Shown piece by piece: positions 13,581 to 17,815 of a stretch of DNA of 64,000 nt. The translations under genes and the position numbers were made by a program. The number at the start of each line of letters is the position of its first letter. Within the stretch, counting starts at the first letter, position 1. This DNA comes from an uncultured virus (IMG/VR IMGVR_UViG_3300030116_001948) (lineage: Duplodnaviria > Heunggongvirae > Uroviricota > Caudoviricetes). The stretch covers positions 1 to 64,000 of the IMG/VR virus record IMGVR_UViG_3300030116_001948; one strand, 5' to 3'. Below the pieces are notes generated by a model that saw nothing but the letters and a program-made list of their open reading frames with translations, had not been told where the DNA came from and ran no database searches.

Positions 13581-13980
13581 TAAAGAAATTAAAAGACGAT
13601 TCAAAGAACAAATGACTTGGGCTGGTGAACAGTTAGTATCATGTAAAGACTTAGAATCGTTTGAGTTAAGAGATGCAATAGTCAATAAGAGTATTGATTT
13701 TGCATCAAAAAGATTGGATGATGGTAAGATAAAATACTTACATCAAGTACCAATAACTTTGCAAGAATGTTTAGATGAAAATCGTAACAATTTAGCAGAG
13801 ACAATAGAAGAAGTTATAGATGCATTAATATACATAATAGCTGAGGAGATTTTACAAACTGAGCTTGAATGTGAAATAGCATCTAGATACTTAAATAAAG
13901 CTAACGCATATCTATACTACGCTTTGTTTTTCCTGATGGTAGCAGATATGCATGACAGTAAAGGAAAAGAAAATGAGTAA
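13567..13980 (+). CDS. Putative all-alpha (MazG-like) nucleotide pyrophosphohydrolase
   Basis: RL..G...Y...ETIEEVIDALIY (EExxD) motif; homolog at 57255-57485. Confidence 0.5.
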   Translation: MESNNKEIKRRFKEQMTWAGEQLVSCKDLESFELRDAIVNKSIDFASKRLDDGKIKYLHQVPITLQECLDENRNNLAETIEEVIDALIYIIAEEILQTELECEIASRYLNKANAYLYYALFFLMVADMHDSKGKENE

Positions 13981-14299
13981 CGAAGTAAAAGGTGTTGCAT
14001 ACAATAATGGTGATGGTAGATTCGTAAGAAATACTGCCTTCCTAGAAATATTGGGTGCAGATGGTCAGCCTAGATTGACCACAGTGGGTCAGTTCATGGA
14101 GTACTTACGTGAGAACAATGTAAATGTTCCAAGTAATGCACAAATTACTATGAACTTACAAGAGGTAGATGCCACAGCAACTCTTGTACCACAAACATCA
14201 TCTACTAGATCAGAAGATGAAGGGTTTGTATTCTTATCATTTATGAGAGATGATAAGACTGGTGGCAAGATTGCATTTGAAGAATATTTAAGTGCATAA
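13973..14299 (+). CDS. Ubiquitin-like (beta-grasp) modifier precursor
   Basis: 108 aa from MSNEVK. TVGQFMEYL helix, ITMNLQEV, final strand FVFLSF, then KTGG followed by the 10-aa tail KIAFEEYLSA; lies upstream of the E2/JAB/E1 genes. Confidence 0.7.
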   Translation: MSNEVKGVAYNNGDGRFVRNTAFLEILGADGQPRLTTVGQFMEYLRENNVNVPSNAQITMNLQEVDATATLVPQTSSTRSEDEGFVFLSFMRDDKTGGKIAFEEYLSA

Positions 14300-14313
14300 T
14301 ACGATGACACAAA

Positions 14314-14344
14314 GCTGGCTATGTAGTAATGCTATGTAGCCAGC
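14314..14344 (+). promoter_or_regulatory. Intercistronic hairpin between the Ubl and E2-like genes
   Basis: GCTGGCTATGTAG-TAATG-CTATGTAGCCAGC; 13-bp stem with two G-U pairs on the + strand. Confidence 0.55.
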
Positions 14345-14365
14345 ATAACCCAAGAGAGGAAAAGA

Positions 14366-16291
14366 ATGGAAAATGTAGTAAGTAATAATGTTGATATAGA
14401 TATACAATCTATTGCAACAGAATTAGTTATTGGTCCACAAGAAAAGTTGATGAGACAAATCAATGAGTTGAACAATAACTATATTACCAGAACATATATG
14501 TATGGTAATCGTTCAGTTCTTGAACCATTAAAACCATTAGGTATTACACATACATACAGATGGAAACCTGGTTACAAAAATATTATACTTGAAACAATCA
14601 ATACTAGATTTGACCAGTATAATAAGAATACATCTAGTTTAGAAACATTGCTTCTTAATAGACCAGAGAGAATGCGTTGGAACAAAAAGAACTTTATTAG
14701 TTCTATTCTAGACATAGATTCAACACTCAAAGACTTGAGAAAAAGAGGAATCAATATGGATAGTACTGTTGAAACAGCAGTAGAAACATTTGATGAAGTT
14801 ATATCTTTATTTCAAGACAGAGTAAAGTATGCAGAAGATTTTCTTGCAGCGTTTGATAATATAGATATACATTCTTACATCAGATATGCAGATATGCAAG
14901 AAGATGATAATGTATACAATGAAATGATGAAGTGGAAGACAGCTTCAATTAATGTAGAACTTAAGTTCAAAGAACCACACATTAATATCTATGGTCCAGA
15001 TAGAGATAGCAATACACAGTTGCTTGCAAAAGTTCCTACAGAACCTATCTATCTACACTTTGAAATGCCAATATCACATTTAGTTAATGGATTGTTTGGT
15101 AAAGACATAGATGATATTACACATAATGATTTGACACCAAGTAATAAATATGAAAGCGTTACAACATCACAAAGAAATAGTGGGCTGTATAGATTTTCAC
15201 AAGGTGTTAAAGTAGTTGGTAAATGGTTAGGTAGAACACCTGATACTGACTCAAGAAACAGATTGTATGAACATCCATTTATGTCTTCAGTGTCAGAATT
15301 GTATGTAGATATACAAGGCACATCATACTGGACTCATTGGGGTGAAGATGAAGAACAGTATCAAAATAATATTTGCTTTGGTAACTTGCAAGATGAAGTA
15401 TACAATGCATTTTCTAAGTTAAATATTATTGGATTGATACAGATACTTAATTCATGGCAAACATATAAGTGTGGAGTTACTGGTCCATTGAACTCTATAC
15501 CTTTTTCAATACTATATCTAGACCAAGACTATCATGAAGACTTGCCACTTGCTATTGGTATGTCTATTGATAGTATGTATTCTAGAGTATTGCAAATGTT
15601 TGGTATGCATGCTGGTGTAGCAGAAGGTCCAACAACAACATACCGCAGTGAGAGTCAGTATGGACATAGTGGTATGGAATGGAACTATAGATCTGATTGG
15701 TATGAACAAACAAACTATACAGTTAAACAAAATAAAATTGTATGTGGTTGGGACTTTACTTTAGATAATTGGTTACCACTAGAATCTCAAGTAAGAGAAG
15801 TTTGTGATGACCATCATTACAAGAAAGTCTTTCAAAATCTTGGTCCAGATTCATTACCATTTGAGGATGTTAACTATGATAATATCAATGATACTCACAA
15901 AGAAATACAAGATAATTATATTTGTAGAGTTCAAGAATGTATTATTGATGATATTATAGCTACAGTACATTGGTTTTATGATAATAATTGTCAGTCTATG
16001 GACTCAATAGAGTTTGCATATATGGTAGACTTTCTATACAGAGTTGGTTACTTCGACCAAGAAGTACCACTTTTATTAGAAGCAACTAATAGAGTACAAG
16101 GTATGCTTAGAATGACAACACAAAGTTTGCCTTCAACAACACAAGACTTAGAACTTGAAAGTGAAGACCAAACAAATATCATAGAAGAAGTAGTATCAGA
16201 AGAACAAGAACCAGAAGAAGAGCTAAGTTATGAAGAACAAATGAATGCTTATAACTGGGAGAGGAGAATGAGAAATGTCGTTCAAGATTAG
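14366..16291 (+). CDS. Large protein with a putative E2/UBC-like domain
   Basis: H303-P304 (YEHPFMS), then N-I-C337-F-G-N, followed by two helices (DEVYNAFSK; IIGLIQILNSWQTY); operon context. Confidence 0.6.
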   Translation: MENVVSNNVDIDIQSIATELVIGPQEKLMRQINELNNNYITRTYMYGNRSVLEPLKPLGITHTYRWKPGYKNIILETINTRFDQYNKNTSSLETLLLNRPERMRWNKKNFISSILDIDSTLKDLRKRGINMDSTVETAVETFDEVISLFQDRVKYAEDFLAAFDNIDIHSYIRYADMQEDDNVYNEMMKWKTASINVELKFKEPHINIYGPDRDSNTQLLAKVPTEPIYLHFEMPISHLVNGLFGKDIDDITHNDLTPSNKYESVTTSQRNSGLYRFSQGVKVVGKWLGRTPDTDSRNRLYEHPFMSSVSELYVDIQGTSYWTHWGEDEEQYQNNICFGNLQDEVYNAFSKLNIIGLIQILNSWQTYKCGVTGPLNSIPFSILYLDQDYHEDLPLAIGMSIDSMYSRVLQMFGMHAGVAEGPTTTYRSESQYGHSGMEWNYRSDWYEQTNYTVKQNKIVCGWDFTLDNWLPLESQVREVCDDHHYKKVFQNLGPDSLPFEDVNYDNINDTHKEIQDNYICRVQECIIDDIIATVHWFYDNNCQSMDSIEFAYMVDFLYRVGYFDQEVPLLLEATNRVQGMLRMTTQSLPSTTQDLELESEDQTNIIEEVVSEEQEPEEELSYEEQMNAYNWERRMRNVVQD

Positions 16292-17165
16292 TAAGAATGA
16301 TTGGAATAAAGTAATCAATTACTCAAAGTATGCTTGGGATGAGCATGGTTCTGAGATAGGTGGTTATATGGTAGTAATTAAAGAAGATGATGAGTTTATC
16401 ATAAAAGAGCCAGTGATATTAGAACAAGAAATATCAGCAGGTAATACCGTGATAAAGAAAGAAGCACTTGCAAAGTATCAACAGAAAGCAGCAATGCAAC
16501 ATGGTACAGATGTATACTTTTGTTGGTGGCATAGTCATCATACTATGAGTGCTTTTTGGTCTGGTACAGACTTAAATGCTATTCAACAATCAAGACATAG
16601 TGATGTATCTTTTAGTCTAGTTGTTAACCTTAAAGAAGAATATTTGTTTAGGGTTAGCATCTGGGAACCTGTAGAAGTACATGTAGATGTTGCGATTGAA
16701 ATACAAGGTAAAGATGATATACCTAAATATATTATCAATGATGTTGAGTCTCTGTGCAGTAAGCCTAAACCTGTTAGTATAGTTAAAACAGGTAGATCTA
16801 AGTATGAATATGGTGGATATGGTTTATCGTACCCAGACAAAATGCAAACAGTTCTTGCCTTAGATACTAAGTCTCAAGACACTGAGCTAGTTAACTTAGA
16901 AGCTAAATTAGATAACATATTGTTAGATTATATATCTAGTAATGATGATTACAAAAAGTATAAATCAAAAGTTAGAAAGCTAAACAAAAGTCTAGAAAAA
17001 GATGGTAGTCAACTTAGAGTTGGTATAGTATCAGAAGAAAATATTGACACAGTAATACATTTTGCAGAAGCAGAAAGTTATATACATCGTGTTGGTTTAC
17101 CTTTTGATGAAGAAGCTATTCTAGAATTACATCAATATAATAAAGCATGGGAGAAGTTCAAATGA
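16275..17165 (+). CDS. JAB/MPN+ (JAMM) metallopeptidase
   Basis: E27 (SEIGG) plus H86-S-H88-x7-S96-x2-D99 (WWHSHHTMSAFWSGTD), an intact JAMM motif. Confidence 0.9.
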   Translation: MSFKISKNDWNKVINYSKYAWDEHGSEIGGYMVVIKEDDEFIIKEPVILEQEISAGNTVIKKEALAKYQQKAAMQHGTDVYFCWWHSHHTMSAFWSGTDLNAIQQSRHSDVSFSLVVNLKEEYLFRVSIWEPVEVHVDVAIEIQGKDDIPKYIINDVESLCSKPKPVSIVKTGRSKYEYGGYGLSYPDKMQTVLALDTKSQDTELVNLEAKLDNILLDYISSNDDYKKYKSKVRKLNKSLEKDGSQLRVGIVSEENIDTVIHFAEAESYIHRVGLPFDEEAILELHQYNKAWEKFK

Positions 17166-17815
17166 TAGGAACAAGATACAGTGCCATTGTAGATGGTCTG
17201 AATAATCATACTTATCATATCCTTGGTTGCGGTGCTATTGGTAGTGCCGCAGCTACTCAGATAGTTAGAATGGGTGGTGATAATATCAAGTTATATGATT
17301 ATGATGAAGTCAATACAGAAAATATTGGCGTATCAATGTACGGACATAAAGATCTAGGAAGATCTAAAGTTGCAGCATTGAAAGATATGTTGGAGGATAT
17401 TAATCCTTCAGCTAGTATTACAGCATTTAACGAAGAGTTTTTAGAACATGAATGTACAGATAGTGATATTATTGTTTTAGGTTTTGATTCAATGAATGCA
17501 AGAGAGTATGCTGTTAGAAGAGTATTGCAAAAGAAAAGACCATATCTATTGATAGATGGTCGTATGGGTGCAGAACATTATCAACAGTATACTTTTAAGA
17601 ATCCTACTATCAAGCAGTATATGGCTACTTGGTATTCAGATGATGAGGGTAGTGAAGCACCATGCAATGCAAAGGCTACAAGCTATTGCAGTAATATGTC
17701 TGGTAGTTTCATATGTAATTCTATTAAGAAAGTTATTAATGGAGAACCATATCAATCAAGATTCTCTTTTAATTTTCCTAATATGTTACTAAATTCTGAA
17801 GGATTTAATACGTAA
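17162..17815 (+). CDS. ThiF/MoeB/E1-family adenylyltransferase
   Basis: ILGCGAIGS, DYDEV..EN, DLGRSKV, GFDS...R, IDGR; candidate catalytic Cys in EAPC; ATGA overlap with the JAB gene. Confidence 0.92.
   Translation: MIGTRYSAIVDGLNNHTYHILGCGAIGSAAATQIVRMGGDNIKLYDYDEVNTENIGVSMYGHKDLGRSKVAALKDMLEDINPSASITAFNEEFLEHECTDSDIIVLGFDSMNAREYAVRRVLQKKRPYLLIDGRMGAEHYQQYTFKNPTIKQYMATWYSDDEGSEAPCNAKATSYCSNMSGSFICNSIKKVINGEPYQSRFSFNFPNMLLNSEGFNT

Follow-up and report, generated by a model that had tools for sequence, protein, structure and literature searches.

A candidate ubiquitin-like protein conjugation cassette beside the replication genes of uncultured tailed phages

The four-gene cassette

Positions 1-64,000 of IMG/VR record IMGVR_UViG_3300030116_001948, from an uncultured marine Caudoviricetes virus (this 64,000-nucleotide stretch is hereafter the window), contain four consecutive plus-strand genes. 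They encode a small protein predicted to be ubiquitin-like (Ubl), a 641-aa protein whose central domain resembles ubiquitin-conjugating (UBC/E2) enzymes in predicted structure, a JAB/JAMM metallopeptidase and a minimal E1-like adenylating enzyme. A preliminary description, made from the sequence alone, had read these genes as a ubiquitin-like conjugation set. All four open reading frames (ORFs) lie where it placed them, the last three overlapping (17 nt between the large gene and JAB; 19 nt between JAB and E1, or 4 nt if E1 begins at 17162), and the motifs it quoted (DKTGG-KIAFEEYLSA, HPF...ICFGN, the JAMM site, GCGAIGS and EAPC) are all present. The sole existing database name in the cassette is 'ThiS adenylyltransferase', attached to the E1; the other proteins are unnamed in public databases.

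13973..14299, plus strand: Ubl precursor, 108 aa; predicted beta-grasp body at residues ~7-91; K95-T-G97-G98; 10-residue tail KIAFEEYLSA (codons 14267-14296)
14366..16291, plus strand: large protein, 641 aa, from an unnamed family; conserved helical domain at the N-terminus (aa ~1-133), predicted UBC/E2-like centre (aa ~137-413; nt ~14774-15604), divergent C-terminal half
Central motifs of the 641-aa protein: [HFY]P[YF] at 303-305, 31-residue variable loop, invariant C337 (nt 15374-15376), P374-L-N376
16275..17165, plus strand: JAB/JAMM metallopeptidase, 296 aa; E27, H86-x-H88-x7-S96-x2-D99 (nt 16530-16571); ~170-aa C-terminal extension
17147..17815, plus strand: minimal E1-like adenylating enzyme, 222 aa (217 aa from 17162); G27xG29xxG32, D51, K74, D114, R139, P-C173-x7-C181

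This arrangement is strongly conserved in viral metagenomes. Scanning IMG/VR with E1 motifs recovered 348 viral contigs with this type of E1, of which 80 were kept and 65 were unique by E1 sequence; linkage is counted below over unique viral loci with enough flanking DNA. The JAB gene lies immediately 5' of the E1 gene in 58/58 loci, the large-protein gene 5' of JAB in 47/47, and a small ORF ending in Gly-Gly (GG) 5' of the large-protein gene in 42/45 (38 recognized by profile, 4 by inspection). A primase-helicase gene follows 3' of E1 in 50/50. The survey of gene order proposed with the preliminary description therefore returned a near-perfect linkage of Ubl, large protein, JAB and E1. The four components have diverged to very different extents, with median identities to the proteins of the window, across 38 complete unique loci, of 56% for E1, 40% for JAB, 30% for Ubl and 23% for the large protein; the Ubl is detectable by BLASTP in just 24 of these 38. 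Such a gradient fits conserved chemistry combined with a diversifying specificity component.

The ubiquitin-like protein, JAB peptidase and E1-like enzyme

The small protein has no match in Pfam, PHROGs, PADLOC or NCBIfam. Direct sequence searches reached only its close relatives, and its orthologs were gathered via the neighbouring genes of related loci. A longer frame of 115 aa opens at 13952; the 108-aa form is favoured because an AAAGGA Shine-Dalgarno site lies ~8 nt 5' of the ATG at 13973 and this start overlaps the stop of the preceding gene. A small protein with DK[TK]GG near its C-terminus is encoded in 16/16 loci having upstream DNA, and an alignment of 43 sequences, in which column identity averages ~20%, has G97 and G98 as its sole invariant columns, with K95 kept in at least 90%. 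The chain ends exactly at the GG in 25 of 47 unique orthologs, and the other 22 carry unrelated tails of 1-31 residues (10 in the window, 31 in locus L081). The AlphaFold model (pLDDT 80.7) has the element order beta-beta-alpha-beta-beta-beta and a flexible C-terminus; the Foldseek matches listed are Ubls, namely Atg8/GABARAP/LC3, SUMO-like domains, FAT10, Atg12 and ElonginB (E 2e-3 to 2e-2, probability 0.82-0.99). SAMP1 and SAMP2 are among the fold and Pfam matches, and one ortholog (L005, 69 aa) exceeds the Pfam ThiS cut-off (22.8 vs 22.5 bits). The preliminary description had made its Ubl assignment depend on a beta-grasp fold and on conservation of the GG in homologs, and the protein passes on both counts. 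By its model, it is a ubiquitin-like beta-grasp protein with a conserved C-terminal Gly-Gly that is, or can become, the C-terminus, and this places it in the ThiS/MoaD/ubiquitin superfamily.

One clade has a further gene, located between those for Ubl and the large protein or close to them, whose 160-195-aa product ends C-x-x-SGGF(I/E)I(S/C/W) (L005:6248-6769; also L006, L020-L022 and L080). This second conserved C-terminus of GG plus a short tail might mark another substrate of the JAB peptidase or E1.

The JAB gene encodes a protein above the Pfam Prok-JAB cut-off (33.7 bits vs 25; 3.6e-8) and with matches to generic JAB models in PADLOC (to 5e-5). The intact JAMM site previously claimed is borne out, with E27, H86, H88, S96 and D99 all present, and this E...HxH-x7-S-x2-D site identifies the protein as a JAMM/MPN+ member. 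Among 60 unique orthologs HxH-x7-S-x2-D is universal (60/60), and a stricter pattern adding an upstream E-x-GG is matched by 43/60. A tblastn search with JAB against 50,697 phage records returned one partial match.

The E1-like enzyme consists of a single adenylation domain, and in most database copies it begins at the internal Met, for a length of 217 aa. It matches Pfam ThiF (PF00899) at 83 bits against a cut-off of 28.1 (2.4e-23), which together with GCGAIGS confirms the ThiF/E1 identification made from the sequence; C173 in EAPC is likewise conserved. The GxGxxG motif of this Rossmann-type adenylation domain is present in 65/65 unique orthologs and PC-x7-C in 64/65, and C173 or C181 is possibly the thioester cysteine on this pattern. 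More specific classification fails: the best NCBIfam model, ThiF PRK08644, scores 82 bits under a cut-off of 159, and the protein falls below every NCBIfam ThiF/MoeB equivalog cut-off as well as that of PRTRC_ThiF (25.2 vs 144.75 bits). Its best PDB match is UBA5 (1.8e-10), with UBA6, TcdA, MoeB, MccB, ThiF and Cap2 about equally distant, and these alignments reach only residue ~100-146, so that the N-terminal half alone aligns. Because the enzyme is nearly equidistant from several families and misses the equivalog cut-offs, its family assignment fixes the chemistry (C-terminal adenylation) and not the pathway. A tblastn search of plasmids with E1 gave 5 weak matches, one of which was inspected and had no annotated E2 beside it.

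The large E2-like protein

Like the small protein, the 641-aa protein matches no Pfam, PHROGs, PADLOC or NCBIfam model. When 1.84 billion representatives were searched with its profile, 269 proteins of its family were recovered at E<=1e-3 (42 at E<=1e-30); family members range from 500 to 720 aa. Sequence profiles do not place this family among the E2 enzymes: Pfam E2/UBC models, UQ_con and Prok-E2 included, match 0/57 family members and 0/10 isolated cores at E<=10, and whole-protein and core-domain profiles find no E2 among PDB sequences. The 57 members have no other informative Pfam match. Neither megablast of the cluster nor tblastn of the large protein found a match in the 50,697 phage records, and a pattern scan of 185,579 species genomes found no relative by that single pattern.

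Predicted structure points more clearly to an E2-like core. The AlphaFold model, built from 57 diverse family sequences, has a pLDDT of 80.8 and a pTM of 0.77. Foldseek of the full 641-aa model against PDB gave nothing significant (best E 0.9), and neither the whole protein nor residues 130-420 had a usable match in the ESM Atlas. In an exhaustive VIA-align search, all 15 of the 15 matches covering residues ~130-410 are E2 or RWD proteins, with 80-90% of each E2 covered; they comprise 1yrv, UBE2S, UbcH5c (two entries), UBE2F, Pex4p, UbcH10, Ube2K, a Plasmodium E2, UBE2O, Ubc9, Ube2W, the RNF25 RWD and listerin (two entries, aligned near the listerin C-terminal end). UEV and CENP-O entries appeared on a further look, and residues 21-135 gave helical-bundle matches that are non-specific. 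The UBC fold anticipated for this protein is thus supported for its central domain, which is UBC/E2-like in predicted structure.

Residue conservation is in keeping with this predicted fold. Across 55 unique viral orthologs, 17-34% identical to the large protein of the window, C337, P304 and P374 are invariant (55/55), W364 is kept in 54/55, and N376 in 51/55 with Gln in the other 4; C337 is also invariant in 57/57 diverse family representatives. E1 is 51-65% identical across loci whose large proteins are 17-34% identical. The conservation of C337 expected by the preliminary description accordingly holds, and its HP...ICFGN motif stands in part: P304 and C337 are invariant, but position 303 is His in only 35 orthologs (Phe in 16, Tyr in 4), and position 305 is Tyr or Phe and never the Asn of an HPN motif. 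In canonical E2 enzymes the HPN motif lies ~8-10 residues before the catalytic Cys. The distance from [HFY]P to Cys in the phage family varies continuously from 12 to 53 residues, and the 34-residue spacing in the window is for this reason read as a loop insertion. A stricter HP...CxG[NDSE] pattern is matched by 95/128 full-length representatives. The order of elements (beta-sheet, [HFY]P[YF], loop, Cys, helices, P-L-N loop) is one we take to mirror the E2 core. On this reading, C337 would be equivalent to the E2 catalytic Cys. The family therefore combines a predicted UBC alpha/beta fold and an invariant Cys with the absence of both the HPN motif and sequence-profile membership.

Over the whole chain, conservation is highest in the N-terminal ~130 residues and lowest in the C-terminal half. 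A cysteine cluster of the form C-x-C-x-C (consensus CDxxxCxxRxxC) is present in the C-terminal half of 30/56 orthologs; the protein of the window is without it, its clade retaining just C542. This pattern hints at a metal-binding module that is lost or optional.

Variants and cellular relatives

Several loci depart from the standard four-gene order. L057:1375-3377 is a three-gene variant in which a Ubl ending NKVGG is followed by JAB and E1, with no large-protein homolog in its 27.8-kb record (estimated 57% complete); it stands outside the 47 loci counted for the large protein, since its E1 is too close to the locus end. A ~200-aa ORF with the C-terminus VWR(V/T)x occupies, in one subclade, the usual place of the GG-terminal small protein, just 5' of the large protein (L088:2459-3073, L101:2288-2878 and L102:2707-3330), and no GG-terminal small ORF was found within ~3 kb upstream in these three loci. 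In L088, a 119-aa ORF separates the ~200-aa ORF from the large protein.

Cellular genomes yielded four matches only, one being a 3.9-kb contig from a metagenome-assembled genome (MAG) with the full four genes and three being distant cassettes. In a Nitrospirota MAG contig (L030, 2711-8167), the order is di-Ubl, 512-aa protein, JAB, ArdA and E1. The Ubl is a tandem di-ThiS/SAMP2-like protein with each repeat ending PK[VI]EGG, and the ArdA anti-restriction gene (2.8e-34) lies between JAB and E1. The 512-aa protein (3145-4683) contains HPHVSDTAAVCLGN, with an H-to-C distance of 10, which we take to be canonical E2 spacing, and has a long Cys-rich tail. As a candidate relative of the large protein it was rejected: hhalign aligned the VCxGN segment only (E 0.02, probability 2.4%), which is not significant. 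The ORF 3' of the L030 E1 is, by eye, presumably a recombinase, and this cassette is probably part of an integrated mobile element.

Genomic setting and neighbouring genes

The full record of 89,793 bases consists of two related phage genomes, each ~44 kb, joined together. A run of 10 Ns lies at 42789-42798, and the second genome begins near 44.7 kb; the late-gene blocks at 2166-10541 and 45875-54664 share ~70-75% DNA identity, and the segments 2-476 and 44719-45193 match at 91%. The cassette sits in the first genome, and an IMG/VR contig of 44,033 bases is identical to it across the whole 17.9-kb locus fetched. Phage origin is borne out by PHROGs matches to major head, portal, large terminase, tail fibre and endolysin proteins. 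These structural genes are on the minus strand, opposite to the cassette, which is located at the head of the replication gene block. The elements around the four genes are as follows.

13567..13980, plus strand: 137-aa protein whose stop overlaps the Ubl start; possible accessory gene outside the conserved core
14314..14344, plus strand: stem-loop with a perfect 14-bp stem, within the 66 nt that separate the Ubl and large-protein genes and not followed by a U-run
19852..21642, plus strand: primase-helicase (DnaB_C and primase/helicase PHROGs); a context gene and not a component, with the module always 5' of it

The second genome in the record encodes a primase-helicase (63770-65554 in record coordinates) with 54% amino acid identity to that of the window, and neither E1 nor the large protein was found in it. 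Since this sister phage lacks the module, the four genes are an accessory cassette. Pfam gave nothing informative for the nine genes that fill the equivalent arm of the sister phage. The 137-aa protein has no family match in Pfam, PHROGs or NCBIfam, and homologs of its gene occur 5' of Ubl in 15/36 testable unique loci. Directly 3' of E1, a 118-aa Cys-rich protein (17824-18180) with two CxxC-like pairs (CTIC...CHGC) has homologs in 17/50 loci and is possibly a zinc-binding accessory protein. The structural arm of this 44-kb phage also includes a 3182-aa ORF (22741-32289, minus strand) with no PHROGs match at E<=1e-5. No tRNA genes were found in the window and no integrase among the ORFs scanned, and the carrier looks lytic-type.

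With respect to expression, the stem-loop is predicted to be unusually stable (-22.6 kcal/mol, z -4.87; 0/200 shuffles as stable). L003, with a gap of just 15 nt, lacks it. As an mRNA stability or attenuation element raising Ubl over the enzymes, it may set the Ubl:enzyme expression ratio. Scans for consensus promoters and terminators did no better than shuffled sequence (49 vs 62.9 expected and 3 vs 3.3, respectively) and are therefore uninformative on expression timing. Nine metatranscriptome contigs of 175-388 nt, from two aquatic runs of one study, are 90-100% alike to parts of all four genes. They are not counted as proof of expression, given possible DNA carry-over, and contigs of this kind cannot rank the genes.

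Comparison with known systems

Mobile bacterial operons of Ubl, E1, E2 and JAB genes were predicted some time ago, and in the available part of that work the sole phage case is a Ubl and JAB pair in lambdoid/T1-like tail clusters (Iyer, Burroughs and Aravind 2006). Bacterial ubiquitin-like conjugation has recently been shown experimentally for Bil, CBASS type II and Bub, in the accessible accounts always as host defence, with Bil and CBASS type II being antiphage systems. The phage cassette has the same four-part set as Bil types I and II (BilA Ubl, BilB E2, BilC JAB and BilD E1), as these are set out in the available text of the reports (Hor et al.; Chambers et al.). Further likenesses, within the same limits, are a Ubl with a conserved C-terminal Gly and, in some members, a short non-conserved tail, and one JAB potentially responsible for both processing and deconjugation; Type II BilA Ubls are described with the same mix of GG ends and short non-conserved tails (Chambers et al.). 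However, no PADLOC model matches the phage Ubl or large protein, JAB and E1 match only generic JAB and E1-E2 models, and the four-component PADLOC profile match that would define Bil is lacking. Whereas BilD, in the sections consulted, has inactive and active adenylation domains and a CYS domain, the phage E1 is a 217-222-aa single-domain enzyme and not a large two-domain one. BilB is presented there with a Cys and a downstream His, in contrast to an E2-like domain inside a 500-720-aa protein with [HFY]P[YF] upstream of its Cys. Bil is found in bacterial defence islands, unlike the phage cassette beside replication genes.

Operon class 6d, or the PRTRC cassette (NCBIfam TIGR03734-03742), is likewise carried on mobile DNA and has a separate gene each for a Ubl, a JAB, an E1-like and an E2-like protein, with predicted roles, according to the available text of Iyer, Burroughs and Aravind (2006). 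Its E2-like proteins are described there as having no upstream His and a His after the Cys, in contrast to the upstream [HFY]P of the phage family. Membership in PRTRC was considered and rejected: besides the PRTRC_ThiF score given above, PRTRC_A scored 15.7 vs 101.8 bits, other PRTRC models gave none at E<=0.1, and there is no ParB. By sequence profile, the cassette belongs to neither Bil nor PRTRC. It differs in four respects, namely the minimal E1, the E2-like core with an insertion and no HPN Asn, the 500-720-aa protein that houses this core, and the viral, replication-linked site. CBASS type II shares the E1 adenylation domain (PADLOC E1-E2 to 5.7e-15; Cap2 PDB chains 1.6e-6) and the JAB partner Cap3, though the matches span just ~90 N-terminal residues of the phage E1. 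Cap2 is an E1-E2 fusion, whereas the phage E1 and E2-like proteins are separate, and the phage cassette includes a dedicated Ubl and lacks a cGAS-like CD-NTase to be conjugated.

Sulfur-carrier and dual-function Ubl systems (MoaD/MoeB, ThiS/ThiF, CysO/Mec+, QbsE/QbsD, TtuB/TtuC and SAMP/UbaA/JAMM1) combine a small GG-ending beta-grasp protein with a minimal E1 and JAB trimming. They provide the best fold and family matches of the phage Ubl and E1; the phage cassette differs in adding a UBC-like protein with an invariant Cys and in missing the ThiF/MoeB equivalog cut-offs widely. Among phages, crAss001 gp78-gp77-gp76 (a ~440-aa protein, a JAB-like metalloprotease and ThiF) lies beside a primase in the same order, with E1 28-32% identical; two crAss-like loci with this order were seen (L007, crAss001 gp79-gp75; L027, bajarodcaudo virus 1). 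In contrast to the phage cassette, no GG-terminal Ubl was identified at the crAss-like locus. As candidate relatives of the large protein, crAss001 gp78 and its bajarodcaudo counterpart proved unrelated by hhalign and hmmsearch, and in BFVD the 641-aa model had weak structural matches (E 0.16-0.5) among crAss-like proteins. Eukaryotic E2/E3 hybrids such as UBE2O have no sequence similarity to the 641-aa protein, and a hybrid role for it is a proposal by analogy. Full-text literature searches found no description of a phage-encoded Ubl-E2-JAB-E1 set, though subscription-only papers and preprint supplements (Bil operon tables) might list examples; the nearest case, from the available part of a preprint, is an Asgard archaeal virus with three E1-like genes. 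The kind of system is already known, and the phage cassette is a variant of it, widespread in viral metagenomes and unannotated.

Proposed mechanism and alternative explanations

The module is probably a phage-encoded ubiquitin-like protein conjugation cascade. The earlier reading holds in its composition of Ubl, E2-like protein, JAMM peptidase and E1, with several details, among them the HP...Cys motif, now corrected. Folds, motifs, conservation and linkage form the observed basis, from which we infer every chemical step. The JAB peptidase would cut the 10-residue tail of the precursor, exposing G98; E1 would adenylate G98 with ATP, possibly handing the Ubl to C173 or C181; and C337 of the 641-aa protein would then receive the Ubl in thioester linkage. 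That protein would behave as a hybrid of E2 and E3 and join the Ubl to a target, presumably at a lysine, and JAB may also be able to reverse the mark. The gradient of evolutionary rates suggests separate tasks within the 641-aa protein, its conserved N-terminal domain acting as the docking site for the conserved E1 or Ubl and its fast-evolving C-terminal half selecting a diversifying target. Our leading guess for the role is modification of proteins of the host or of competitors during infection, in takeover or counter-defence, a role made attractive by the site of the module at the start of the replication genes, by its accessory distribution and by the presence of ArdA within the L030 cassette. 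A fuller proposal can be offered tentatively, namely that tailed phages of marine bacteria encode a complete Ubl cascade with a new E2/E3-hybrid family that tags host proteins, such as defence or replication factors, during infection.

Other pathways could use the same parts. A sulfur-carrier pathway would have JAB trim a ThiS/MoaD-like Ubl, as occurs in QbsD/QbsE and Mec+/CysO; the Ubl would be adenylated and thiocarboxylated via host sulfur donors, and the 641-aa protein would use the sulfur for thiolation of nucleic acids, nucleotides or metabolites. The MoaD/ThiS/ThiF affinities of Ubl and E1, the replication context and the E2-less L057 variant agree with this, but it is unlikely. No rhodanese, cysteine desulfurase, ThiG/MoaE/CysM-like, TtuA or PP-loop enzyme is present among the neighbours scanned: no sulfur or cofactor enzyme was found in 10 neighbouring ORFs (Pfam and PHROGs; 8 also with NCBIfam) or 15 other large ORFs (PHROGs), although host-encoded partners are possible, and the earlier remark that thiamine and molybdopterin genes are missing is borne out among these genes. 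The centre of the large protein matches UBC/UEV/RWD folds only, which to our knowledge are not known as sulfur-transfer enzymes; its invariant C337, the absence of the Cys cluster from the large protein of the window and the distance of E1 below the ThiF/MoeB cut-offs (82 vs 159 bits) also argue against a sulfur carrier. Conjugation may alternatively proceed without an E2, as it does for archaeal SAMPs with UbaA and Thermus TtuB with TtuC, in which case conjugation would need E1 only, with the 641-aa protein serving as substrate, adaptor or regulator and its UBC-like domain as a UEV/RWD-type binding module. The phage E1 is minimal like UbaA and UBA5, the latter its best PDB match; SAMP1 and SAMP2 appear among the Ubl matches, the scores of UEV and RWD domains are close to those of catalytic E2s, and L057 manages without the large protein. 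Against these points, a cysteine invariant in 55/55 orthologs amid 17-34% identity is hard to explain in a non-catalytic module, and the large protein is present in 47/47 testable loci, making an E2-independent route quite improbable.

The same chemistry might also serve the opposite role, with the cassette acting as a Bil-like defence or superinfection exclusion system that tags structural proteins of competing phages. Characterised relatives (Bil and CBASS type II) are antiphage in the available accounts, and the module is accessory, missing from the sister phage despite its 54%-identical primase-helicase. This role appears decidedly unlikely in view of the lack of PADLOC matches to Ubl or the large protein, the lytic-type carrier with no integrase among the ORFs scanned, the location among replication genes in 50/50 loci rather than in a moron or defence-island position, and the ArdA gene within the related L030 cassette. 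A virion-assembly chaperone comparable to lambda TAPI/TAPK, which pair a Ubl domain with a JAB peptidase in a tail-assembly cluster, is very remote, as the module lies on the strand opposite the structural arm and beside the primase-helicase, and includes an E1 and an E2-like protein, both of which the lambda tail system lacks.

Significance

With 348 contigs and near-perfect four-gene linkage, the cassette represents a widespread viral counterpart of bacterial host-defence Ubl conjugation. If it instead serves as a sulfur carrier, it would point to a new phage thio-modification at the replication stage. Should the 641-aa protein be a working E2/E3 hybrid, the UBC superfamily would gain a new branch, one in which a variable insertion separates the [HFY]P motif from the catalytic Cys. 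The rapid evolution of the C-terminal half would then single out its target as a site of conflict between phage and host. K95 stands immediately before T-G-G, so trypsin digestion should leave Thr-Gly-Gly on modified lysines, a distinctive remnant that would make it straightforward to find targets by proteomics. If the cascade does tag host proteins, Bil-type chemistry would have been turned against the cell, and the cassette would be the first self-contained virus-encoded set of Ubl, E1, E2 and deubiquitinase known outside eukaryotic viruses.

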